A stretch of DNA of 30,589 nucleotides from Patescibacteria group bacterium (GTDB taxonomy: Bacteria; Patescibacteriota; Patescibacteriia; UBA9934), in the NCBI GenBank assembly GCA_018818445.1, contig JAHISC010000083.1, forward strand, positions 1-30,589, given 5' to 3'. Position numbers and translations under genes: made by a program. Positions 679-19,682 of this stretch are shown in pieces; positions within the stretch are counted from its first letter, which is position 1, and every line of letters begins with the position of its first letter. Below the pieces are notes generated by a model that worked only from the letters and a program-made list of their open reading frames with translations, did no database searches and was not told where the DNA came from.

Positions 679-752
679 CTCTATATTCGTTTCTCATATC
701 TTCTCTACAGTATAGCTGGATAATTTTTAGTTCATTTAAAATATATTTTGGC

Positions 753-776
753 TTTTACATCCGATCGGATGTAAAA
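753..776. promoter_or_regulatory. Perfect 24-bp palindrome TTTTACATCCGATCGGATGTAAAA, probable operator or element end
   Basis: Self-complementary; ends 7 nt before ATG 784 and overlaps a TAAAAT -10-like hexamer (772-777). Confidence 0.8.
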
Positions 777-783
777 TTAAGGA

Positions 784-1308
784 ATGAAAAAACACCAGAA
801 ACAAAATAATAGAACCATTGCTTTTACCCAGCAAGTTCTGTTGGACATGCTTTTAATAGTTGGAGAATTATACGAAACAGGCATGAAAACCTATCGCGGT
901 CCTTTTTCTAGACCACGTGAGAAAGTTGGTGATAGATTTGCAAAAAAACAATGCCAAGGTATCAACGAACTAAAGAAACGAGGACGTATCAGGATAATAA
1001 AAAATGGTGAAAAGCAGTTTTTTGAATTAACTCAAAAAGGCTATCAAGAAGCCTTAAAATCGAGGATAATTACAAAAAGCAAGATGATGCCAGATGGAGA
1101 TTTTTGTCTTGTCGTATTCGATGTTCCTGAGGATATAAGAAAGGTTAGATGGGCCTTTAGAAGATTACTTAAGAAGGCTGATTTTTATCAGGTTCAAAAA
1201 AGTGTTTGGGAAAGCGACAGAGAAGTTGTGGAGGAGTTAAGAGAACTGGTCAAACAACTAAAGGCTGAGCAGTATATCAGAGTTTATCGCGCTAACGGTG
1301 AGCGATAG
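784..1308 (+). CDS. PaaX-like protein (wHTH-like N-terminus + Cas2-like ferredoxin-fold domain), copy 1
   Basis: FELTQKG at the end of the wing, then LVVFDVPEDIRKVR...LKKADFYQVQKSVW, the PaaX-central/Cas2-like signature. Confidence 0.8.
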   Translation: MKKHQKQNNRTIAFTQQVLLDMLLIVGELYETGMKTYRGPFSRPREKVGDRFAKKQCQGINELKKRGRIRIIKNGEKQFFELTQKGYQEALKSRIITKSKMMPDGDFCLVVFDVPEDIRKVRWAFRRLLKKADFYQVQKSVWESDREVVEELRELVKQLKAEQYIRVYRANGER

Positions 1309-1322
1309 CATTCCTTAATAAC

Positions 1323-1343
1323 ACATCCGATCGGATGTAAAAT
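1323..1343. repeat. Second copy of the palindrome (ACATCCGATCGGATGT-AAAAT) downstream of PaaX-like copy 1
   Basis: 21 nt identical to 757-777; starts 14 nt after the stop codon. Confidence 0.9.
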
Positions 1344-1380
1344 CAAGGATTGGTGTTATTGGTTGGGTTTGCAAGATGTG

Positions 1381-1450
1381 TATTCCATATTCCATATTTT
1401 ATATTCCATACGTTATGTTTCAGGTTCTATATTCTAGGTTCTATATTCCA
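1381..1450 (+). repeat. Degenerate heptamer tandem array (TATTCCA-like x10)
   Basis: TATTCCA TATTCCA TATTTTA TATTCCA TACGTTA TGTTTCA GGTTCTA TATTCTA GGTTCTA TATTCCA. Confidence 0.85.
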
Positions 1451-1563
1451 GGTTTGACCATCAGACTTGGTTGGTTTCAACATTACACATTCAACATACT
1501 ATGCCCCAAATTCCTAGTTACAGGAGACATCTTGTGTGGGCATAGATTATACGAAAATTGATT

Positions 1564-1591
1564 TTGCACACTTGAAAGAATCTGATACAAT
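1564..1591 (+). promoter_or_regulatory. Putative sigma70 promoter TTGCAC-N16-TACAAT with extended -10 TG
   Basis: TGaTACAAT at 1583-1591, 10 nt before ATG 1602. Confidence 0.5.
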
Positions 1592-1601
1592 ACCACCCGT
1601 T

Positions 1602-2177
1602 ATGAACAATGAAGTTGTACTCGATATTGAGACTCAAAATACTTTTCAAGAAGTAGGTGGCTATCATACAGATAAACTTAAAGTTTCTGTGGTAGTCGCT
1701 TATTTTTATGAGACAGATGAATTTGTTGCTTACGAAGAGCAGCAATTACCACAACTTTTTCAACGTCTGGAGCAAAGCGGACGGATTATTGGTTACAATA
1801 ACATCGGTTTTGATATTCCGGTTCTAAATAATTACTACGTCGGTGATTTACTGCAGCTTCCACAGCTGGACATGTTAGCCAAAATTCACAGCTCCCTTGG
1901 GTATAGGATTAAACTCGATGATGTAGCTGCTGCAACTATTGGTATGGGCAAATCGGCTCACGGACTGCAAGCGGTGCAGTGGTGGAAAGAGGGTAAAGTG
2001 AGAGAAATTATCGATTATTGTACTCAGGATGTCAGAGTGACCAGAGATGTTTACGAATTTGGTAAAGAAAATGGCTTTATTCTGTTTGACGACAGGATGG
2101 GGGAACGCAGGCAGGTGAATATAGATTTTCATCCTTCAGAGGAAAAAGCTCAGATAAATCTTTCTATGGGATTTTGA
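1602..2177 (+). CDS. RNase H-like/DEDD 3'-5' exonuclease domain protein (YprB/RNase_H_2-like)
   Basis: VVLDIETQ (Exo I), IIGYNNIGFDIPVL (Exo II), YCTQDV (Exo III); ATG 1602 preferred to GTG 1536 because of the promoter position. Confidence 0.8.
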   Translation: MNNEVVLDIETQNTFQEVGGYHTDKLKVSVVVAYFYETDEFVAYEEQQLPQLFQRLEQSGRIIGYNNIGFDIPVLNNYYVGDLLQLPQLDMLAKIHSSLGYRIKLDDVAAATIGMGKSAHGLQAVQWWKEGKVREIIDYCTQDVRVTRDVYEFGKENGFILFDDRMGERRQVNIDFHPSEEKAQINLSMGF

Positions 2178-2196
2178 TGATTTTGCGACACATTTC

Positions 2197-2205
2197 TGTG
2201 GATAA
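2197..2205 (-). promoter_or_regulatory. Perfect DnaA box (TTATCCACA on minus strand) upstream of nrdJ
   Basis: TGTGGATAA at 2197-2205. Confidence 0.65.
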
Positions 2206-2218
2206 CATAAAAATTCAG

Positions 2219-2266
2219 CCACAACATCTTGTGGTACAATAGCCCTGGTGACACAACATGTTGTGT
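2219..2266. promoter_or_regulatory. Tandem NrdR boxes
   Basis: CCACAACATCTTGTGG (2219-2234) and perfect palindrome ACACAACATGTTGTGT (2251-2266), starts 32 bp apart, flanking an extended -10 TGgTACAAT (2232-2240); matches the known 16-bp NrdR box pairing upstream of RNR genes. Confidence 0.8.
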
Positions 2267-2352
2267 TGCTCGCCGTCAGGGAAAACATTGGGTCCCCAAA
2301 TCAGGGATCTTTTTCTTCCCTAAATTTCATTCAATTTTTTGATGCTCGACCT

Positions 2353-5300
2353 ATGAACGAACAAATTTCTCCATCGTCTCAGAATTTAGGTGTTGAAAAG
2401 AAGGCAGACCATCTTTCCAATGCAGTTTGGCAATACATCACTGCTATCAAATCAATAACTAAAAGATCTGGAGAGGAACAAGCTTTTGAGGTGGAAAAGC
2501 TTCATCACTCGATTTATAGTGCTTTAGAAGAGGCTGGAATTAAAAGTGAAGGTCGAGCTGAGCAAATTGCAGCCCAGGTTACATCTAGACTTCAGAGAAT
2601 TTTCAATGGTCATAGTATTCCCAGTACAGCTGATGTTCGAGAGGTAGTTTCCATGACTTTTATCGACAATAATTTGGTTCATGTTGCAAAAAAGTATATT
2701 GCATTTAGACAATCGTTAGCTCCAGAGACAACAGGTGAACCGGTTTATGGACGAGGTATAACTTTTGAAAGATTTTTTACTAAAGAAGGCTTGCATCCAT
2801 TCGACGAGATTGAATGGGAAATGCGTACTGCTTCTATTAAGGATTCCAAGGGTAGCGTTGTTTTTGAACAAACTGGCATCGAAACACCAAAATCATGGTC
2901 ACAAACAGCAACTAATATTGTGGCTCAGAAGTATTTTAGAGGCAAAGTCGGTGCATCAGACAGAGAATCATCAATGAAGCAACTAGTAAGCCGAGTAGCT
3001 ACAACTATTGCTAACTGGGGAAGGACTAACGGTTATTTTGAAGCAGTTTATGATGCACAGACCTTTGAAGATGAGCTTACTCACCTCCTGATTCATCAGA
3101 AAGCTGCTTTTAATAGTCCTGTTTGGTTTAATGTTGGTGTTAGTCCACATCCTCAGTGTTCTGCTTGTTTTATCAACTCAGTAGCCGATGATATGCGCTC
3201 TATTATGCATTTGGCTACCACTGAGAGTATGCTTTTTAAAGGCGGATCCGGCACTGGTTCGAATCTGTCCACACTAAGATCGTCAAAGGAGTTTTTAGGT
3301 CATTCCAATGGCAAGTCTTCTGGACCGATTTCATTCATGAAAGGTTTTGATGCTTTTGCCGGAGTAGTCAAGTCAGGCGGAAAAACGCGTCGAGCTGCAA
3401 AAATGGTCATTCTAAACATCGATCATCCTGATATTGAAGAATTTATTTTGTGTAAAGTAAAAGAAGAGAAAAAAGCCTGGGCTTTAATTGATGCTGGTTA
3501 TGACGCTTCCATGGACGGAGATGCTTATGGGTCCATTTTCTTCCAAAATGCTAACAACTCTGTACGCGTTACAGATGATTTTATGCAGGCAGTCGAAAAC
3601 GGTGCAAAATGGACAACCAAAGAAGTTACCTCTGGAAAACCATCAGATACTTACGAAGCACGTGATTTAATGAACAAGATGGCAGATGCTGCTTGGACTT
3701 GCGGTGATCCTGGAATTCAATACGACACAACTGTTAATCGTTGGCATACTTGTAAAAATTCAGGCCGCATAAATGCTTCCAATCCATGTTCTGAATACAT
3801 GTTTTTAGATGACTCTGCGTGCAACCTAGCTTCCTTGAACTTGATGAAATTCAGAAAAGAAGTAAATGGACTGATGGAATTTGACGCCGAGGCCTTTAAG
3901 CGTGCTTCAGCAGTCATCATTACAGCCATGGAAATTATTATTAGCAGTTCTAGTTATCCAACGCCAGCTATTGAGCACAACAGTAACGATTTCCGACCAT
4001 TGGGAATAGGTTTTGCTAATCTTGGTGCTTTACTGATGAGCTTTGGGTTGGCTTATGATTCGGATAAAGGGCGTAACTTAGCAGGTTCGATTATGTCTTT
4101 GCTCTCTGGGCATTGTTACTATCAGTCAGCCAAGATTGCAGAGAAGGTGGGACCATTTAATCGTTATAAAGAAAATGAAGAACCAATGCTCGAGGTTATG
4201 CACATGCATCGTGAAGCCGCGTATAATATTCCGGCCGAAGGTGTTGCTTCTGATTTGCTTTTTGAAGCACGCAAAGCCTGGGATGAAGCTGTTCGTCATG
4301 GAGAAGAACATGGTTTTAGAAATGCACAAATTTCAGTTTTGGCACCGACCGGTACAATTGGATTTTTGATGGACTGTGACACTACCGGAATTGAGCCAGA
4401 CATTGCTTTGGTAAAATATAAATGGTTGGTTGGTGGCGGTATGGTTAAAATCGTCAACAGTACCGTTCCAGAGGCTCTGGCTCGTTTGGGCTATGGGGAT
4501 AGCGAGGTAAAGGATATCTTGGCTTATATTGACGCTAAAGACACAATAGAGGGTGCACCATTTTTGAAAGACGAGCATTTATCAGTATTTGATTGTGCTT
4601 TTAAAGCCAAGAACGGAACTCGTACTATTCATTACATGGGACATTTGCGTATGATGGCCGCTGTGCAGCCTTTTATCTCAGGAGCGATCAGTAAAACAGT
4701 CAACATGCCGCACAATGCCACCATAGAAGATATTCAAGAGGTTTACATGGAAGGTTGGAAAATGGGAGTGAAAGCAATCGCCATTTATCGCGACGGTTCC
4801 AAGAGACAACAGGCTCTTACTACATCCAAGTCAAGTACTGAGAAAAAAGAAGTTAAAGAAGAAGAGGCACCAGTACAGACTCACGTCGAGACTAGGACAG
4901 TTGCACACACAGCCGATTTTACTCCACGTCGTCGTCGTTTACCTGATGAGCGTCGCTCAATTACTCACCGATTCATGATTGGAAGCCACAAAGGTTATAT
5001 TACTGTTGGCCTCTATGATGATGGCAAGCCAGGTGAAATATTCGTGACCATGGCTAAAGAAGGTTCAGTTATTAGTGGTCTAATGGATAGTTTTGCTACG
5101 GCTGTCTCTATAGCTTTGCAGTATGGTGTGCCGTTGCAGATTTTAGTTAACAAGTTTGTCCACAAGCGTTTTGAACCATCAGGTTTCACTAATAATCCAA
5201 ATATACGAGTAGCTAAATCAATTGTTGACTACCTTTCACGCTGGCTGGCTTTAAAGTTTTTATCGGAAGAAGAACAGAGAATGGTAGGGATCAATAATAT

Positions 5301-5571
5301 GAGCTCACTACCAGAGAATAAGTTAAGTCTTGGTTCTGCGCCGTCGAAAGGTGAAGAACAGGCACAAAAGAACTTATTTAATGGTGATGGAGAAGAAAAA
5401 GAAGAAAGTGAATTAGCCACAGCTCCAACTAGCTCGAGCATCGCTTCTCATACAGCCACATTTGATAATTCAGCAGATGCACCGCCTTGTGACACTTGTG
5501 GCTCGATCATGGTGCGCAACGGAGCTTGTTATAAGTGTCTGAATTGTGGCGGAACAAGCGGATGTTCGTAG
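2353..5571 (+). CDS. nrdJ: Class II (adenosylcobalamin-dependent) ribonucleotide reductase with N-terminal ATP cone and C-terminal TSCPD/Zn-ribbon domain
   Basis: ATP cone (TKRSGEEQAFEVEKL), PQCSACFI, NPCSEY, APTGTI, SKTVNMP, C-terminal CDTC...CLNCGGTSGCS; ATG 2353 preferred because GTG 2248 lies directly beside NrdR box 2. Confidence 0.95.
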   Translation: MNEQISPSSQNLGVEKKADHLSNAVWQYITAIKSITKRSGEEQAFEVEKLHHSIYSALEEAGIKSEGRAEQIAAQVTSRLQRIFNGHSIPSTADVREVVSMTFIDNNLVHVAKKYIAFRQSLAPETTGEPVYGRGITFERFFTKEGLHPFDEIEWEMRTASIKDSKGSVVFEQTGIETPKSWSQTATNIVAQKYFRGKVGASDRESSMKQLVSRVATTIANWGRTNGYFEAVYDAQTFEDELTHLLIHQKAAFNSPVWFNVGVSPHPQCSACFINSVADDMRSIMHLATTESMLFKGGSGTGSNLSTLRSSKEFLGHSNGKSSGPISFMKGFDAFAGVVKSGGKTRRAAKMVILNIDHPDIEEFILCKVKEEKKAWALIDAGYDASMDGDAYGSIFFQNANNSVRVTDDFMQAVENGAKWTTKEVTSGKPSDTYEARDLMNKMADAAWTCGDPGIQYDTTVNRWHTCKNSGRINASNPCSEYMFLDDSACNLASLNLMKFRKEVNGLMEFDAEAFKRASAVIITAMEIIISSSSYPTPAIEHNSNDFRPLGIGFANLGALLMSFGLAYDSDKGRNLAGSIMSLLSGHCYYQSAKIAEKVGPFNRYKENEEPMLEVMHMHREAAYNIPAEGVASDLLFEARKAWDEAVRHGEEHGFRNAQISVLAPTGTIGFLMDCDTTGIEPDIALVKYKWLVGGGMVKIVNSTVPEALARLGYGDSEVKDILAYIDAKDTIEGAPFLKDEHLSVFDCAFKAKNGTRTIHYMGHLRMMAAVQPFISGAISKTVNMPHNATIEDIQEVYMEGWKMGVKAIAIYRDGSKRQQALTTSKSSTEKKEVKEEEAPVQTHVETRTVAHTADFTPRRRRLPDERRSITHRFMIGSHKGYITVGLYDDGKPGEIFVTMAKEGSVISGLMDSFATAVSIALQYGVPLQILVNKFVHKRFEPSGFTNNPNIRVAKSIVDYLSRWLALKFLSEEEQRMVGINNMSSLPENKLSLGSAPSKGEEQAQKNLFNGDGEEKEESELATAPTSSSIASHTATFDNSADAPPCDTCGSIMVRNGACYKCLNCGGTSGCS

Positions 5572-5593
5572 GGTTTAACGATTGTTTTGAAAG

Positions 5594-5622
5594 AAAAGCA
5601 GATCCAAGAGGGTCTGCTTTTT
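5594..5622 (+). terminator. Intrinsic terminator after nrdJ
   Basis: AAAAGCAGATCC-AAGA-GGGTCTGCTTTT(T) stem-loop with T run. Confidence 0.8.
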
Positions 5623-5645
5623 GTTTTCTGCTATAATACTTATGT

Positions 5646-5981
5646 ATGCATAAAACAAATCGCGTTTGGGACGTTTTAGTCCTTTGGCCCTTTATATATT
5701 TAATCTTGGCAATCATTTTTACTGTTGTTATATCTTTTATAACAACTGATGCTTCTATTCCAGAAGAAGTAATGGGTGCTTTAGTGGCACTTGGCTCACT
5801 CTTCTTTCTGATCCATATCACCAGCATAGTGCTCATGATTGTAGTTTACATCTATGCCATTCATCGTTTGTACACGCAAACCAGGCTGCCAGATGATGAG
5901 AAAAAGAAGTGGCTAATTTTGATTATTCTTTTCAACTTTATTGCTATTCCGTTTCTACACTTTATGTACTTGCGAAAATAG
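5646..5981 (+). CDS. Small membrane protein with PLDc_N-like C-terminus
   Basis: Three hydrophobic segments; DEKKKWLILIILFNFIAIPF; extended -10 TGcTATAAT at 5629-5637. Confidence 0.6.
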   Translation: MHKTNRVWDVLVLWPFIYLILAIIFTVVISFITTDASIPEEVMGALVALGSLFFLIHITSIVLMIVVYIYAIHRLYTQTRLPDDEKKKWLILIILFNFIAIPFLHFMYLRK

Positions 5982-6013
5982 TGATAGTATTGGAACAACT
6001 TCTAGGGTTTAAG

Positions 6014-6041
6014 AAGGGCAGGCCAGAGTGCTTGTCCTTTT
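6014..6041 (+). terminator. Possible intrinsic terminator
   Basis: AAGGGCAGGC-CAGAGT-GCTTGTCCTT(TT), stem with G-U pairs. Confidence 0.45.
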
Positions 6042-6083
6042 GCATCTTGAACATCTCAACATTTGAACGTAAGATATTGTTAT

Positions 6084-6662
6084 ATGACACCTCCGGAATT
6101 GGATGAACGAATTAAGGGGCACAAGGGCTATGGTTTGATTCAACTAATCCATGGTCCAGGCAAGGGAAAGAGTACAGCTGCTCTTGGACAGGTAGTGAGA
6201 TGTGCGGGCGCTGGAAGGCGGGCTATAATTATTTATTTTGATAAAGGCGGCCAAGATCACTACTCAGAAAGAGGCTCATTGGACAAATTTGATAATATAG
6301 AATACCTTGCAACCGGTCGTGATCGAATCGATCCAGATAGTGGTAGATTTGATTTTTCGGTGACTGAACTTGATCGGCAAGAGGCAGAAAAGGGATTAGC
6401 CTTGGCTCGTGAAGTTTTGACATCCGGTGTTTACGATCTCGTAGTGCTCGATGAAATCAACTCAACTGTTCAGCTGAAAATGTTGGCTGTCGAAGATGTC
6501 ATAAGTGCATTGGAAAATAAAGATCCAGAAACCGAGGTTATTTTGACTGGCCGAAATCCTAAAGAAGAACTAATTAAGATAGCTCATCTAATTTCAAAAG
6601 TTGAAATGGAACGTCACTATTTTTACTCTGGTGTTCCAGCACGTGAAGGCCTAGATTACTAA
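6084..6662 (+). CDS. btuR: ATP:cob(I)alamin adenosyltransferase, BtuR/CobO (CobA-type) family
   Basis: GLIQLIHGPGKGKSTAALG short P-loop, YDLVVLDEIN, EVILTGR, final GLDY; promoter TTGAAC-N17-TAAGAT (6047-6075) supports ATG 6084. Confidence 0.85.
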   Translation: MTPPELDERIKGHKGYGLIQLIHGPGKGKSTAALGQVVRCAGAGRRAIIIYFDKGGQDHYSERGSLDKFDNIEYLATGRDRIDPDSGRFDFSVTELDRQEAEKGLALAREVLTSGVYDLVVLDEINSTVQLKMLAVEDVISALENKDPETEVILTGRNPKEELIKIAHLISKVEMERHYFYSGVPAREGLDY

Positions 6663-6724
6663 CTGTGGATATCATTGCAAAATGATGTTTACAGCTAGCG
6701 CAGGCTTTTCTATAATCCTTTCGT

Positions 6725-7156
6725 ATGCAAGTTGAAAAAGCAATTGAAAAATTTCTTGAGGGTGAGTCGATTATTGTGGCTGGCAAAACTTTTGATACAG
6801 ACACAGTAGAAGAAATTCGCCTAGAAACCGGTGATAAGATTTATTGGGTACGCGATGGCGGAGATTTGTGGCTGTCAGTAGATCCAGAATCAGAAGAAAT
6901 TATTTTATTTCATACCGTTGAAGAAGAAATTGATTCATCCGGGGATACGGTTTATTTCAAAGGAGAGGATTATGAATTCGAGTTTGAGGGTATAGGACGA
7001 ATTTTAGACGACGGTGAAGAAACTGATGAGATTATTTTTCGAGATTTTTCTGGTCCAGACGGCGAAGTACTCAGGGCAGCCGAGAATACCGTTAGCAATG
7101 AAATTGAGACTTCTATAGGAACAAAGATTACTGATGAAGATTTGCAAGAGGCATAA
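6725..7156 (+). CDS. Acidic hypothetical protein, possibly DUF4178-like
   Basis: Very Glu/Asp-rich beta-type ORF; promoter TTTACA-N17-TATAAT (6688-6716); the family call is only a weak resemblance. Confidence 0.55.
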   Translation: MQVEKAIEKFLEGESIIVAGKTFDTDTVEEIRLETGDKIYWVRDGGDLWLSVDPESEEIILFHTVEEEIDSSGDTVYFKGEDYEFEFEGIGRILDDGEETDEIIFRDFSGPDGEVLRAAENTVSNEIETSIGTKITDEDLQEA

Positions 7157-7171
7157 TTGGTAGATTGTAGA

Positions 7172-7212
7172 CAACTTATCCACAGTAAACTTAGTTTACT
7201 GTGGATAAGTTG
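7172..7212. promoter_or_regulatory. 41-bp palindrome: two inverted perfect DnaA boxes flanking AAACTTAGTTT
   Basis: 20-bp perfect arms around a 1-nt centre; TTATCCACA 7176-7184, TGTGGATAA 7200-7208. Confidence 0.85.
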
Positions 7213-7300
7213 GTTGAGGAAAAATACAAGAATTAACAGCGGAGTTTTATCTGTACCATAAATATTTCGGCTTTGAGCTGAATTGCGGTAAAATGGGCTG

Positions 7301-9217
7301 ATGATTGCCTCCAGTTTTAAAAAAAATAAACGAAAAAGCACTCATGCCTGGCGAATGAAGGCATTACGTTTATTATTCGTTGTTTTTACTGGGATTATTA
7401 TTTTTCGTCTATTTTCTTTACAAATTTTAAACGCCAATTTTTACGAAGCTTTAGCCTCTGGTCAGCACTCCTTTTATCAAGAGCTTTTTGCCGAGCGTGG
7501 CAGTATTTTTGTTCGTGATTGGAAGAGTAAAGAGGAATATGTTGTGGCTACCAATGAACCGCGTGGTTTTGTTTTTGCTGACCCGCGGCGTATTGAAAAT
7601 CCGGAAGAGACAACTCGCAAGTTATGCGAATTATTAGGTCACGAAGTGCCGGCAGTCACGGAGACTAGTACCGAGGCCGCAGACGGTTCTGATATTATGG
7701 CTGGCTTGGAAGATGAGGTTGTTACCGCAGAGGAAACAGTAAGTATTGATGTCTCGGTTGCAGATGAGTCAGCAGAAACAAATGGTGAAGAAGATCCGTA
7801 TGCGACATATAAGACGCTCCTTGAGCGTCTTTCCAAACAAGATGATCCTTATGAACCTGTCGAACGTGGGGTTAGCCAGACTATTCTCGATAAACTTGAT
7901 GCCGCTTCTCTTGCTGGTATCGATTATGTTCTCGAGGAATCCAGATCGTATCCAGAAGCGGGTCTTGGTGGTCATATTTTTGGCTTTGTTCGTCCTGGTG
8001 GGGAAGATCGGGCTGCTGGTCAATATGGATTAGAAGGATATTTTGATGAATTTTTAGCAGGCACAAACGGTTTCCTAGATACGCAGACAGATGCCTCAGG
8101 TAGATGGATTGCTGTAGGCTCACGGGAGTTTCAACCAGCTGTTGATGGCGGTGATCTACTATTAACTATAGATAGGACTGTGCAATACATTGCTTGCAAA
8201 AAGCTGAGTGAAGCCGTAGCAGCACATCAAGCTGACGGCGGCTCAGTGGTTATCATGCATCCACAGACTGGGAAAATAATTGCTATGTGCAATGTGCCAG
8301 ATTTTGATCCAAACGCTTATCAGGATGTTGAAGATATATCAGTTTACAATAACATAGCAATTTTTGAAGCTTATGAGCCTGGTTCCGTTTTTAAACCATT
8401 AGTAATGGCAGCAGCTATTGACATGAATGTCGTTGAACCAACAACCACTTATGTTGACGAAGGTGAGGTAAAGGTTGACGATCGAACTATCCGAAACTCT
8501 GATTTACTAGCGCACGGTTTGCAAACTATGACTGGTGTTTTAGAACTGTCATTGAACACTGGAATGGTTTTTGTTTCTCGTCGTTTGGGCGCTGAATCGA
8601 TGCGTAGCTATATTGAAAAGTTTGGTTTTGCTACTGCTTCTGGAATCGAGTTGGATACAGAATCATCTGGTAATACGGAAACCATCTATAAAAGTTCGGA
8701 GATTTATCAAGCAACAGCCAGCTACGGACAAGGTATTACAGTAACTTTACTGCAATTAACTACTGCATATGGTGCTATTGCAAACGGAGGTATGTTGATG
8801 GAGCCGTATATTGTTCAGGAAAGAAGACATGCCAACGGTACGGTTGAAGAGTTTAAGCCAAAGACTGTGCGCCAAGTTATTTCAAAAAAAACAGCCACCA
8901 CGATTGGTGCTATGATGGTTTCAGTGGTCGAAAACGGACATGCTGAAAAAGCGGCAGTGCCGGGCTACTATGTAGCGGGTAAAACTGGTACAGCTCAAGT
9001 TGCTCGCAAAGATGGACGTGGTTATGAAACGAATATAACAAAAGCGACGTTTGCTGGTTTTGGACCAGTTAGTGATCCAGTTTTTGTTATGGCAGTTTAT
9101 ATTGATCATCCACGCACTATTGGCTGGGCATCTGATACGGCTGCACCTGTTTGGGGGGATATCGCTGAATTTTTACTTCAATATTTTGAGGTTGCTCCAA
9201 CGCGAGCGCTCGAGTAA
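7301..9217 (+). CDS. ftsI: Class B penicillin-binding protein (FtsI/PBP2-like transpeptidase)
   Basis: N-terminal TM helix, RGSIF, GGHIFG, YGLEGYF, EPGSVFK (SxxK), SLN (SxN), KTGTAQ; upstream of murF. Confidence 0.85.
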   Translation: MIASSFKKNKRKSTHAWRMKALRLLFVVFTGIIIFRLFSLQILNANFYEALASGQHSFYQELFAERGSIFVRDWKSKEEYVVATNEPRGFVFADPRRIENPEETTRKLCELLGHEVPAVTETSTEAADGSDIMAGLEDEVVTAEETVSIDVSVADESAETNGEEDPYATYKTLLERLSKQDDPYEPVERGVSQTILDKLDAASLAGIDYVLEESRSYPEAGLGGHIFGFVRPGGEDRAAGQYGLEGYFDEFLAGTNGFLDTQTDASGRWIAVGSREFQPAVDGGDLLLTIDRTVQYIACKKLSEAVAAHQADGGSVVIMHPQTGKIIAMCNVPDFDPNAYQDVEDISVYNNIAIFEAYEPGSVFKPLVMAAAIDMNVVEPTTTYVDEGEVKVDDRTIRNSDLLAHGLQTMTGVLELSLNTGMVFVSRRLGAESMRSYIEKFGFATASGIELDTESSGNTETIYKSSEIYQATASYGQGITVTLLQLTTAYGAIANGGMLMEPYIVQERRHANGTVEEFKPKTVRQVISKKTATTIGAMMVSVVENGHAEKAAVPGYYVAGKTGTAQVARKDGRGYETNITKATFAGFGPVSDPVFVMAVYIDHPRTIGWASDTAAPVWGDIAEFLLQYFEVAPTRALE

Positions 9218-9228
9218 TATTAAGATGT

Positions 9229-10521
9229 ATGAAAAAACTTATTACTAAGATGCTCCAGCAGCGTGCAAAAAAAGTATTAAAGAAATTTGATCCACAGGTC
9301 ATTGCAATTACTGGTTCAGTGGGTAAAACTTCTGCAAAGCAGGCCATTATCACTGCTATTCTAGATGACTTTACTGTTCGTACTGGTCTGAAAAATTATA
9401 ACAATGAAATTGGGGTACCCTTGGCTATTTTGGGTGAAAAAAGTCCAGGTAAATCGATTTTTGGTTGGTTGGGTCTTTTATGGCGTAGCTATCATATAAA
9501 AACATTTCCTGAGATTTTAGTATTGGAGTTTGGCATTGATCATCCTGGAGATATGGCTGTTCTTTGTGATATTGCCGAGCCAAGTATCGCAGTGGTGACT
9601 GGAATTTCTCCTGTTCATGCTGAATATTTCAAAGATATCGATGACCTAGCGAGGGAAAAGGGTGAGATTGTTACTTATGTCAAAGATATTGGTCACGTTA
9701 TTCTTAATGCTGATGATGAACGTATTAGGTCAATGCAAGATAGAACTATAGCGCCTGTAATTTTTTACGGCTCAAATTCCACTAATATTTCGTTTAAGAA
9801 TTTACAGATTACGACTCTTCGTGATGAAGAGTTTGATCCTGGTGAAGTTTTTGTTAGAACTCAAGCTGAAATTTATGAAGGAATGGAGATGGTTGGTGAG
9901 CTTGATCTAACTAATTTGATTGGCTATGCACCAGCAATGGCAGCTTTGGCAGGATTAGCTGTTGCAAAAGCATTAGATCTTGATTTAGCGACAGTTGTGA
10001 ACAGGTTGAATAATGGAATGACTCCGGTTTCGGGCAGACTCAGGCCTATACCAGGAATCAAGGGCACATTAGTGATCGACGACTCATACAATGCGGCGCC
10101 AGCAGCTATGCAAAATGGCTTAGAGATCTTGCGATTGTTTTCACCTGGCGAAGAAAAAGATCGACGTATTGCAGTTTTAGGTCAGATGATGGAACTCGGC
10201 AGTTACAGTGAGGATGAGCATCGAATGATCGGAATGAAAGTGGCGGAAGTGGCAGATTTGTTTATTGCTGTGGGTGAGAGGATGTTACCGGCCGTAGCAG
10301 CCGCGAAAGAAGCCGGAATGGATCCGGAGCATGTTGAATGGTTTAAAAATTCAGAAGAAGCCGGACGTTATCTCGATTTGATTTTACAAACAGGCGATGT
10401 GGTTTATGTAAAGGGTTCACAATCATCACGAATGGAAAAGGTGGTCAAAGATATTATGGCCGAGCCACTACGCGCTCAAGAGCTCCTGGTGCGTCAAGAC
10501 GAAGGCTGGTTGAAGGAATAG
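9229..10521 (+). CDS. murF: UDP-N-acetylmuramoyl-tripeptide--D-alanyl-D-alanine ligase
   Basis: ITGSVGKTSAK P-loop, NYNNEIGVPL, IDDSYNAAP, LGQMMELG, VKGSQ. Confidence 0.93.
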   Translation: MKKLITKMLQQRAKKVLKKFDPQVIAITGSVGKTSAKQAIITAILDDFTVRTGLKNYNNEIGVPLAILGEKSPGKSIFGWLGLLWRSYHIKTFPEILVLEFGIDHPGDMAVLCDIAEPSIAVVTGISPVHAEYFKDIDDLAREKGEIVTYVKDIGHVILNADDERIRSMQDRTIAPVIFYGSNSTNISFKNLQITTLRDEEFDPGEVFVRTQAEIYEGMEMVGELDLTNLIGYAPAMAALAGLAVAKALDLDLATVVNRLNNGMTPVSGRLRPIPGIKGTLVIDDSYNAAPAAMQNGLEILRLFSPGEEKDRRIAVLGQMMELGSYSEDEHRMIGMKVAEVADLFIAVGERMLPAVAAAKEAGMDPEHVEWFKNSEEAGRYLDLILQTGDVVYVKGSQSSRMEKVVKDIMAEPLRAQELLVRQDEGWLKE

Positions 10522-10565
10522 AATACGGCATCGAGGAGTTTATTCAAAAATTCAATAGTTAATCT

Positions 10566-10934
10566 ATGAATGATCTGATCGAAATTGCTAAAGAGGTAAT
10601 TGAAAATCATTATCAAAAAGGACGACACTCCACCGGTGCGGCAATGCGTACTAAGTCAGGAAAAGTCTATACTGGAATTTCGATTAACGCGCAGAAATTA
10701 CATTTATGTTCGGAATGGGGAGCTTTACACCAGGCTTTTTTAGCAGGTGAAAGTGAGATTGAGATGATTGTTGCGGTTCATCGAACTTGTGAAGGTGATT
10801 TTGAAATTTATTCACCTTGCGGGTTGTGTCGAGAATTATTTATAACTTATTGCCCAGACGCTGAAGTAATTTTGTCTGATAAAACGTCAGTTAGAGCTAA
10901 AGATCTTTTACCAAATGCCTGGCAGAAAAAATAA
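10566..10934 (+). CDS. cdd: Cytidine deaminase-like Zn deaminase (Cys-type)
   Basis: GKVYTGI, CSE motif, SPCGLCRE, LLPNAW. Confidence 0.75.
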   Translation: MNDLIEIAKEVIENHYQKGRHSTGAAMRTKSGKVYTGISINAQKLHLCSEWGALHQAFLAGESEIEMIVAVHRTCEGDFEIYSPCGLCRELFITYCPDAEVILSDKTSVRAKDLLPNAWQKK

Positions 10935-10961
10935 TTTACACACTTATGATCCGGCCGGATC
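10935..10961. promoter_or_regulatory. Upstream motif TTTACACACTTAT-GATCCGGCCGGATC with 14-bp palindrome
   Basis: GATCCGGCCGGATC at 10948-10961, 4 nt before ATG 10966; 22/27 identical to 11524-11550. Confidence 0.8.
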
Positions 10962-10965
10962 TAAT

Positions 10966-11487
10966 ATGCGTAAAAAATCATTGAAATCAAATTCACGACA
11001 AGCGAAACTTTTACTTGAGCTAGATGAAGCACTAGATTTTTGGTTTACCATGGCAACTCAACAAACTGCTGTTTTAAAGTACGGCATGGATGGCGTTCGA
11101 TATTATCGTTCAGTCAGAGAAAGAGCTTATCAAAGACAGGCAATGAGGCGGCTTGAAGAAGCAAAAATTCTCGCAATAAAAAGAGTAGGAGATCAATATG
11201 CAGCAGAATTAACTTGTGATGGAGTCGAAGAATTGTTTAGATTAAAGGCACAAATAGCACAAAAGCTGCCAGAAGGTGAGATATGCATGGTTGTTTTCGA
11301 TATACCGGAATCAAATAGAAAATTACGCAGTCTATTACGTCGATTTCTTAAGAAAGCAGGATTTACTATGTTGCAACAAAGTGTTTGGATTATTAAAAAG
11401 GATCTGTATGAGGATTTAGCTATGCTTTTCACGATAAATGGAGCAATACAATGGGTAAAAGTTTTCAAATCGACAGAGGTAAATTAA
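10966..11487 (+). CDS. PaaX-like protein (wHTH-like + Cas2-like domain), copy 2
   Basis: AELTCDG then MVVFDIPESNRKLR...LKKAGFTMLQQSVW; clearly homologous to 784-1308; ATG 10966 preferred to 10915, which overlaps cdd. Confidence 0.8.
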   Translation: MRKKSLKSNSRQAKLLLELDEALDFWFTMATQQTAVLKYGMDGVRYYRSVRERAYQRQAMRRLEEAKILAIKRVGDQYAAELTCDGVEELFRLKAQIAQKLPEGEICMVVFDIPESNRKLRSLLRRFLKKAGFTMLQQSVWIIKKDLYEDLAMLFTINGAIQWVKVFKSTEVN

Positions 11488-11520
11488 TTTTTATACATCA
11501 GAAAATAATGTATTTTAAAT

Positions 11521-11566
11521 ATCTTTACACAAATAAGGTCCGGCCGGACCTTATTTGTGTAAAGAT
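11521..11566. repeat. Perfect 46-bp palindrome without a loop
   Basis: ATCTTTACACAAATAAGGTCCGG|CCGGACCTTATTTGTGTAAAGAT; all 23 pairs checked. Confidence 0.95.
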
Positions 11567-11655
11567 TAGTAACTACTCAAAATATTAGATTATAACAATT
11601 GAAGATCTTGAAGATCTCTAATAATTGTTATCAATGATTCATTGAAGCAGATGAA

Positions 11656-19572: not shown

Positions 19573-19682
19573 AAGCTTAGCTTTGGAAAGCTTAGCTTCC
19601 TGTGGATAAGGCATTGACAGAGTTTGCTGAAAACTTTTTTTCAAACTAAGTTTGCAGTAAACTAAGTTTGCTGTGGATAAGT
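19573..19682. promoter_or_regulatory. Two composite units: (11-bp palindrome)x2 followed by a DnaA box
   Basis: AAGCTTAGCTT 19573 and 19588, TGTGGATAA 19601; AAACTAAGTTT 19643 and 19659, TGTGGATAA 19672. Confidence 0.8.

Follow-up and report, generated by a model that had tools for sequence, protein, structure and literature searches.

Short winged-helix-Cas2 proteins of candidate phyla radiation bacteria are encoded between palindromes that they very probably recognise

The stretch analysed here (positions 1 to 30,589 of contig JAHISC010000083.1, assembly GCA_018818445.1, from a Patescibacteria group bacterium; the whole 30,589 nucleotides are hereafter called the window) is a clean case of a module in which a short gene is bracketed by copies of its own palindrome, with two differently specified paralogs lying 10 kb apart. 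The encoded protein, which we call mini-PaaX, joins an N-terminal winged helix-turn-helix (wHTH) to a C-terminal domain of the Cas2 fold, and members of the family are found across lineages of the candidate phyla radiation (CPR). Comparisons of proteins and sites make it highly probable that the protein specifically recognises the palindromes flanking its gene, whereas for autorepression the chances appear about even, and a nuclease or mobility role is doubtful. The reading as a whole, in which a palindrome-binding protein that is likely an autorepressor is partnered with hairpin-capable repeats resembling repetitive extragenic palindromes (REP), seems fairly probable from the sequences at hand.

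Two open reading frames (ORFs) on the forward strand carry the module in the window, paralog a at 784..1308 (174 aa, with D113 and K139) and paralog b at 10966..11487 (173 aa, with the same two-domain build and Q139), and they are homologous (36% identity over 118 aa, E 9e-21). Exactly four sites in the window match TCCGRYCGGA (760, 1326, 10950 and 11539), against an expectation of 0.03, and a count of 4 was reached in 0 of 100 shuffles. These sites lie 24 and 16 nt 5' of the two ATGs and 18 and 52 nt 3' of the two stops (loci 1 and 2, respectively), at centre-to-centre distances of 566 and 589 bp, and each locus has its own core variant, TCCGATCGGA twice at locus 1 and TCCGGCCGGA twice at locus 2. 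No Cas1 was found in the 88.7%-complete source genome, and the window has no repeat array. The first-pass annotation, which had described two homologous wHTH and Cas2-like genes with a palindrome before each start and after each stop, at these distances, one core variant per gene, and neither cas1 nor an array nearby, is thus borne out.

The full palindromes in the window exceed the 10-nt core. At locus 1, the upstream copy (753..776) is a perfect 24-mer with its core TCCGATCGGA at 760-769, and the downstream copy (1309..1352) is an imperfect 44-mer whose first base directly follows the stop codon. The right arms of this locus are repeats of one another, with 1323-1352 matching 757-786 at 28 of 30 nt, including an AAGGA resembling a ribosome-binding site (RBS), and the 5' and 3' ends are 91% complementary over 34 nt, RBS and ATG included. 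At locus 2, the upstream site (10935..10961) ends 4 nt 5' of the ATG and has the left arm of a class defined below as class A, TTTACACA...TCCGGCCGGA, with symmetry limited to the 14-mer GATCCGGCCGGATC at 10948-10961. The left arm of this 14-mer (TTTACACA...) matches that of the downstream copy (11521..11566), a perfect 46-mer with its core TCCGGCCGGA at 11539-11548 that lies between convergent genes. A longer ORF at 10915-11487 is unnecessary, as alignment of the paralogs supports the ATG at 10966.

The link between protein and palindrome comes from their covariation. A palindrome centre was assigned to each locus and every alignment column was scanned against it, and a single column was informative, that of residue 139 between the invariant Q138 and S140. 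Lysine, arginine, leucine or tryptophan at this position goes with a central A|T step (CGA|TCG or CAT|ATG) at 46 of 46 loci, glutamine goes with a G|C step (CGG|CCG or CAG|CTG) at 13 of 13, and all three clean CGT|ACG loci carry arginine. Both window loci fit the rule, since paralog a combines K139 with CGATCG and paralog b combines Q139 with CGGCCG. Paralog and palindrome therefore co-vary as had been proposed, except that wHTH recognition residues had been the expected place, and the residue that tracks the RY core sits in the Cas2-like domain instead. In the AlphaFold2 model, residue 139 occupies the turn between strands 135-138 and 141-144, where it forms an exposed tip that could extend into a groove or a loop. 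At about 60 loci, a single residue in a beta-hairpin turn of the Cas2 type thus predicts the central base pair, and the rule predicts that a K-to-Q swap shifts the preference from CGATCG to CGGCCG.

A comparison of paralog a with the C90 paralog, encoded elsewhere in the genome, assigns the two halves of the protein to different parts of the site. Identity between the two proteins reaches 81% over the Cas2 half and 33% over the wHTH half; at their sites, the 22-nt core palindrome is the same in both (100% identity) and the outer arms are not, which indicates that the Cas2 half corresponds to the site centre and the wHTH half to the arms. Coding DNA of the pair is only 65-75% identical, which rules out recent gene conversion as the source of the common core and indicates selection on the core itself.

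Pairing of palindromes around the gene is found throughout the family. A profile built from four sequences and run on 61 relatives of the same order matched 36 of them, with 0-8 copies per genome, and across CPR lineages it matched 185 stretches (contigs from one genome per species). In 29 relatives' loci, near-identical long palindromes repeatedly stand before the ATG and at or after the stop, with the stop codon often within the palindrome and terminator-like T runs in some downstream copies. The arms are wholly different between these loci, and the centre is nearly always CGATCG or CGGCCG. Upstream and downstream flanks had in common an exact word of at least 10 nt at 68 of 99 non-redundant CPR loci, against 6 in a control in which upstream and downstream flanks were paired at random, and a word of at least 12 nt at 55 of 99, against 2, so the outcome that the first-pass annotation had named as refuting, a lack of paired palindromes at most paralogs, did not arise. 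Relatives with the gene have a mean of 8.0 TCCGRYCGGA sites and those without it 3.2 (Mann-Whitney p 6e-5, with genomes treated as samples even though related genomes are not independent), and a control pattern gave means of 1.7 and 1.1, respectively. One relative (G034) has 17 TCCGATCGGA sites, 15 of which were counted as further solo copies. Full-text searches of the literature found no description of a partnership between a wHTH-Cas2 gene and its own palindromes.

The protein is a short winged-helix-Cas2 fusion that is neither a true PaaX nor a CRISPR component. PaaX_M (PF20803, 'PaaX central Cas2-like domain') has a cut-off of 24 bits, which the two window ORFs pass with 53.7 and 56.3 bits, and both also exceed the cut-off of CRISPR_Cas2 (PF09827). 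The NCBIfam Cas2 equivalog TIGR01573 gave 30.8, 31.8 and 26.2 bits against a cut-off of 24.5, and 23.9 bits for the C83 paralog. The PaaX equivalog TIGR02277 gave 14-27 bits against a cut-off of 264.55, PaaX_C had no match in a protein that ends at residue 174, and no paa genes adjoin the mini-PaaX genes in the window, which together set it apart from true PaaX; the lack of cas1 and of an array sets it apart from CRISPR Cas2. The AlphaFold2 model, built on a 53-sequence alignment (predicted local distance difference test score 86), has helices and a two-stranded wing (residues 14-97) followed by a beta-alpha-beta-beta-alpha-beta domain (106-171). In Foldseek searches, PaaX (8A39) was the best whole-chain match in the PDB, the C-terminal half retrieved many Cas2 structures at 22-25% identity, and the N-terminal half retrieved AspA. 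Profile alignment to type II-A Cas2 places FDxPE on the beta-1 aspartate and QxSVW on the Cas2 QxSV motif. G86, D113, P115, R122 and S140 are invariant in the 53 sequences, and D113 aligns with the Cas2 catalytic aspartate.

The source genome (693 kb, 41% GC, 109 contigs, of which the window is contig C4) has exactly four paralogs by profile search, namely a, b and those on contigs C83 and C90, and a six-frame search of this genome found no more diverged ones at E < 0.7, including beside solo sites. It has 19 TCCGNNCGGA sites. Eight of these bracket the paralogs, all four of which are bracketed, at 15-25 nt 5' of the ATG and 18-52 nt 3' of the stop, and the other 11 are solo and intergenic. 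Among GC-rich palindromic 10-mers of this genome, TCCGGCCGGA (10 copies) and TCCGATCGGA (6 copies) show the strongest over-representation. The solo sites share three arm classes with the paralogs. Class A (TACACA, a variable stretch, TCCGGCCGGA) comprises paralog b and five solo copies with 19-23-nt arms; class B (ATATGTTTAA, a variable stretch, TCCGGCCGGA) comprises the C83 paralog and two to three solo copies; and class C, a short palindrome ACATCCGATCGGATGT with an asymmetric flank, comprises paralogs a and C90 and two solo copies. Genes next to solo sites include ychF, a type IV secretion system coupling-like ATPase, holB, a P-type ATPase, murG, rpsU, major facilitator superfamily transporters, infA, HD/maf and cysS, unrelated housekeeping genes among which no shared function was found in this genome, and the sites lie between convergent, tandem and divergent gene pairs. 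Three of the four downstream copies lie between convergent genes, as do some solo copies. The mini-PaaX module also accounts for the most strongly over-represented GC-rich palindromes of these tiny genomes and for some of their assembly breaks.

The symmetry of the arms bears on whether the sites act as duplex or as hairpin. At positions 5, 7, 8, 10 and 11 from the dyad, class A copies differ in their Watson-Crick pair, with two or three types per position, yet none of the six full class A copies has an asymmetric cell and the full class B copies have none either, and the 17 TCCGATCGGA sites of G034 have inner arms that vary yet stay symmetric over 20-nt arms. Because a dimer bound to duplex DNA needs no symmetry at positions that it does not contact, intrastrand pairing must matter at some stage, which could be a hairpin, a cruciform, or fold-back copying or repair. 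Mismatches in imperfect palindromes point the opposite way: on the sense strand there is no excess of G.T over A.C (15 vs 13 upstream, 22 vs 16 downstream), and wobble types among the mismatches are no commoner than chance, so these counts lend no support to an RNA hairpin of the sense strand. The two tests together fit DNA that would be able to pair on either strand.

We propose that mini-PaaX, probably in dimeric form, binds the palindromes on either side of its gene. Its Cas2-like domain would read the palindrome centre, with K, R or L at residue 139 for CGA|TCG and Q for CGG|CCG, and its winged-helix half most likely reads the paralog-specific outer arms. With the upstream copy overlapping or touching the putative core promoter, the bound protein would repress its own gene, and the downstream and solo copies would be further sites for the same protein. 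The palindromes themselves behave in a REP-like manner, being intergenic in every gene orientation, with stems kept symmetric by compensatory changes and with a presence that differs between congeneric genomes whether or not the gene accompanies them. The promoter part of this proposal starts from locus 1, where a candidate promoter (TTGGCT, 18 nt, TAAAAT; 748..777 on the forward strand, by consensus match only) spans the upstream palindrome and its -10 hexamer ends 6 nt 5' of the ATG. This would be the classical position for a repressor, and the mRNA would have no leader or almost none. At the C90 and C83 paralogs, TAAAAT and TAAACT, respectively, stand 6-7 nt 5' of the ATG.

Several observations weigh against this proposal. 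Promoter-like matches are no more numerous than the shuffled expectation and locus 2 fits the promoter layout poorly, for which reasons we only infer autorepression, and where a downstream copy lies between convergent genes, there is no downstream gene for which it could be an operator. A dimer that reads duplex DNA alone does not explain the symmetric inner-arm positions that it would leave uncontacted, and the outer boxes are about 30 bp apart, which is far for a dimer of a 174-aa protein on straight DNA. Genomes without a profile homolog keep some excess of the 10-mer, at 3.2 sites against 1.1 for the control pattern. Finally, a tree built with column 139 left out has at least 10 changes of centre type, but this tree is poorly resolved and only three centre contrasts, all concordant, fall on well-supported branches, so the independence of the switches in residue 139 and centre is only partly shown.

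The presence of the cassette varies between related genomes, which bears on an alternative in which the module is a selfish or mobile analogue of REP and the REP-associated tyrosine transposases (RAYT), or of IS200, with the Cas2-fold aspartate nicking palindrome hairpins so as to spread palindromes and move or delete the cassette. The locus 1 cassette stands at the same place in a genome of the same genus (G001). In a genome of another genus (G006), the exonuclease ATG follows the methyltransferase stop after about 40 nt, with neither cassette nor palindrome, and in a further relative (G015) an unrelated 0.98-kb insert lies between these genes. The C83 cassette is missing from G006 and from G001, where its flanking genes (gene X and dprA) abut within 2 nt with no palindrome. 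The C90 cassette is also missing from G001, with one solo palindrome of the same class remaining 48 nt upstream of uvrD. An empty site carrying a single palindrome, which the first-pass annotation had proposed looking for, therefore exists at the C90 position in G001, and at the two clean empty sites no palindrome is present. At the fourth site, between cdd and glmS, G001 is rearranged or its contigs are broken, and cdd of G015 lies elsewhere.

On the side of mobility are the invariant D113, P115, R122 and S140, with the first on the Cas2 catalytic position, the patchy copy number, the solo palindrome where a congener has a cassette, the compensatory evolution of stems, and a Y1 transposase gene in the source genome that is bracketed by its own hairpins, the same layout around an enzyme known to act on hairpins. 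Mini-PaaX has, however, no HUH/Tyr chemistry or other strand-transfer domain, its solo copies are few (2-5 per class in the source genome), and paralogs a and C90 are old, with diverged synonymous sites and hence no sign of recent transposition. The two clean empty sites without palindrome, between methyltransferase and exonuclease and between gene X and dprA, bear no scar, and there the extra DNA of the source genome reaches 80-240 bp past the palindromes, so the palindromes are not demonstrated as the ends of an inserted unit. In the source metagenome (contigs from three groundwater DNA runs), no joint that skips a cassette was seen, and the contigs break inside the 46-bp palindrome at 11521-11566. 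The mobile cassette of the first-pass annotation accordingly survives in that cassettes are gained or lost between congeners, but not in having palindromes as its demonstrated ends, and we regard mobility by this route as rather unlikely.

Other features of these sites deserve mention. At the syntenic locus 1, mini-PaaX of the source genome and G001 is 47% identical, compared with 92% for the exonuclease, 89% for the ribonucleotide reductase (RNR) and 60% for the methyltransferase, so the cassette gene would be either fast-evolving or replaced between congeners. AT-rich short tandem repeats at 640-680 and 1383-1450, with units AATCTATGACT upstream and TTCCATATT / TTCTATATTC downstream, make up the extra DNA that flanks cassette 1 on each side and are missing from the G006 empty site. 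In G001, the DNA beyond the solo palindrome upstream of uvrD (contig C19, from about 3060) is GC-rich with a GC-rich hairpin, and may be foreign DNA or a chimeric join. The absence of the G001 solo palindrome from the syntenic site of the source genome was not used as evidence, as the intergenic DNA is too diverged to align.

A plain transcription factor would be another explanation, namely a dimeric repressor on duplex operators at its own promoter, the next promoter and a regulon, with neither hairpin nor mobility involved. The upstream site between -35-like and -10-like hexamers is what this explanation expects, the downstream copy of locus 1 carries a -10-like TAAAAT pointing at the exonuclease and RNR genes, the closest two-domain fold is that of PaaX, a repressor, and mismatches show neither G.T excess nor strand bias, as duplex recognition predicts. 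It sits badly, however, with downstream and solo copies between convergent genes, with neighbour genes that have no common function, with variable inner arms that are perfectly symmetric in one genome having one protein per class, and with solo copies and cassettes that differ between congeners. We consider this explanation unlikely.

The position of the hairpins at both ends of the mRNA could also suggest a module acting at the RNA level, in which they are bound or cut by the Cas2-like domain, so that the gene would regulate itself post-transcriptionally or its transcript would be stabilised. RNase activity is known for some Cas2 and VapD proteins. The hairpins abut start and stop codons and often contain the latter, the complementarity of the locus 1 ends takes in the RBS and ATG, and some downstream copies have T runs like those of terminators. 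Against this, mismatches compatible with G.U are not enriched on the sense strand, solo copies occur in divergent promoter regions, Rfam had no match in the window, and at three of the four paralogs a -10-like hexamer comes after the palindrome, which would leave the palindrome untranscribed. An RNA-level module is thus very unlikely. That the palindromes have nothing to do with the protein, being ordinary terminators or repeats specific to the lineage, as the resemblance of some copies to bidirectional terminators might suggest, has a negligible chance given that all four paralogs are bracketed, that bracketing far exceeds the shuffled control across the family, that one protein residue predicts the palindrome centre, and that upstream copies stand immediately 5' of start codons.

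The Y1 transposases of the source genome are a separate matter. There are three Y1_Tnp genes, away from mini-PaaX, and the IS200/RAYT-like copy on contig C85 is bracketed by its own, different hairpins, AARCTWAGYTT doublets at 5081-5107 and 5812-5838. Mobilisation of the mini-PaaX module by these enzymes was considered and rejected, as none of the three Y1_Tnp contigs has a CGRYCG-centred site and the C85 copy uses AARCTWAGYTT, which argues that CGRYCG palindromes are not substrates of Y1 enzymes. The AARCTWAGYTT family has 31 hits in the genome, usually as doublets followed by CTGTGGATAA, and its sites lie at 7172-7212 and 19573-19682 of the window and on contigs C13, C49, C60, C64, C71, C85 and C86. 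Because these doublets bracket a Y1_Tnp gene, what the first-pass annotation took for 'DnaA-box modules' in the window may be REP-like elements of the C85-type transposase.

Around the two loci, the window encodes a methyltransferase, a 3'-5' exonuclease, a class II RNR, a cobalamin adenosyltransferase, a penicillin-binding protein, a Mur ligase, cdd and glmS. A separate inverted repeat at 11590-11632 (ATAACAATT...AATTGTTAT), between the 46-bp palindrome and the glmS stop, is probably the terminator of glmS itself; the terminator of G001 at the corresponding position is a conventional GC-rich one. A different contig from the window (C39:2300-2520) carries the only interspaced array seen in the source genome, with at least three copies of a GC-rich repeat of about 43 nt reaching the contig end, a 72-nt period and unique 29-nt spacers, and two TCCGRYCGGA palindromes about 190 nt away; it is possibly a CRISPR-like or TIGR-like array. 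In G034, two pairs of TCCGATCGGA palindromes have no gene between them (its contigs C4:5871/5957 and C11:83565/83652, 86-87 nt apart), and these paralogous doublets may be composite repeat units or collapsed cassettes.

Among known systems, PaaX of E. coli W (PDB 8A39) has the same order of a winged helix and a Cas2-like ferredoxin-fold domain. PaaX is a phenylacetyl-CoA-responsive repressor that binds palindromic operators. Mini-PaaX differs in its length of 174 aa, without PaaX_C and without a paa operon context, in keeping the Cas2 motifs FDxPE and QxSVW with an invariant aspartate, and in having its gene bracketed on both sides and solo copies of its sites dispersed in the genome. The comparison with Cas2 (TIGR01573, PF09827; type II-A structures 5XVN, 5XVO and 6QXF) is motif for motif in the C-terminal half, whereas mini-PaaX has no cas1 partner or adjoining array, its Cas2 domain is fused to a winged helix, and one of its residues tracks base identity; we know of no such residue in Cas2. 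In Cas1-Cas2-prespacer complexes, Cas2 dimers occupy the middle of the DNA duplex. The N-terminal half is weakly similar, in sequence and fold, to the winged helix of AspA among the AspA/ParB-type centromere binders. AspA binds a palindrome beside its own gene. Unlike these binders, mini-PaaX has no adjoining ParA or ParB partner genes and occurs as several paralogs with distinct sites over the chromosome.

Known roles of the Cas2 fold are that of structural subunit in the CRISPR integrase, that of weak nuclease and, in PaaX, that of a dimerisation or ligand module; to our knowledge, reading DNA sequence is not among them. It is a tentative suggestion, with the odds against it, that the CPR wHTH-Cas2 family uses this fold to read, and may use its aspartate to process, hairpin-capable repeats at its own genes and dispersed over the genome. 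If true, this would be a REP/RAYT-like partnership built on a Cas2 fold and a free-living, repeat-recognising relative of a CRISPR adaptation protein, and it would bear on how Cas2 became associated with palindromic repeats. Regulation and repeats have hardly been explored in CPR bacteria, among which the module is common.

In its workings the module resembles two things together, a repressor with its operator, through the PaaX-like build, and a partnership of REP and RAYT. In REP and RAYT (REPtrons and REPINs) and in IS200/IS605, a single small gene is likewise flanked by its own palindromes. The mini-PaaX module also has intergenic dispersed copies, compensatory stems and a patchy presence among related genomes, and the RAYT precedent cited in the first-pass annotation is apt, given that solo copies lie scattered over the genome and that congeners have gained or lost the cassette, on one occasion with a single palindrome left behind. 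In contrast to RAYT, mini-PaaX has no Y1 HUH transposase domain (no match to PF01797) and no evident mobility mechanism, and in contrast to REP its palindromes are loopless, have the common centre CGRYCG and are present in tens of copies and not in hundreds. The module is a second kind of partnership between a gene and its own palindromes, independent of HUH transposases.

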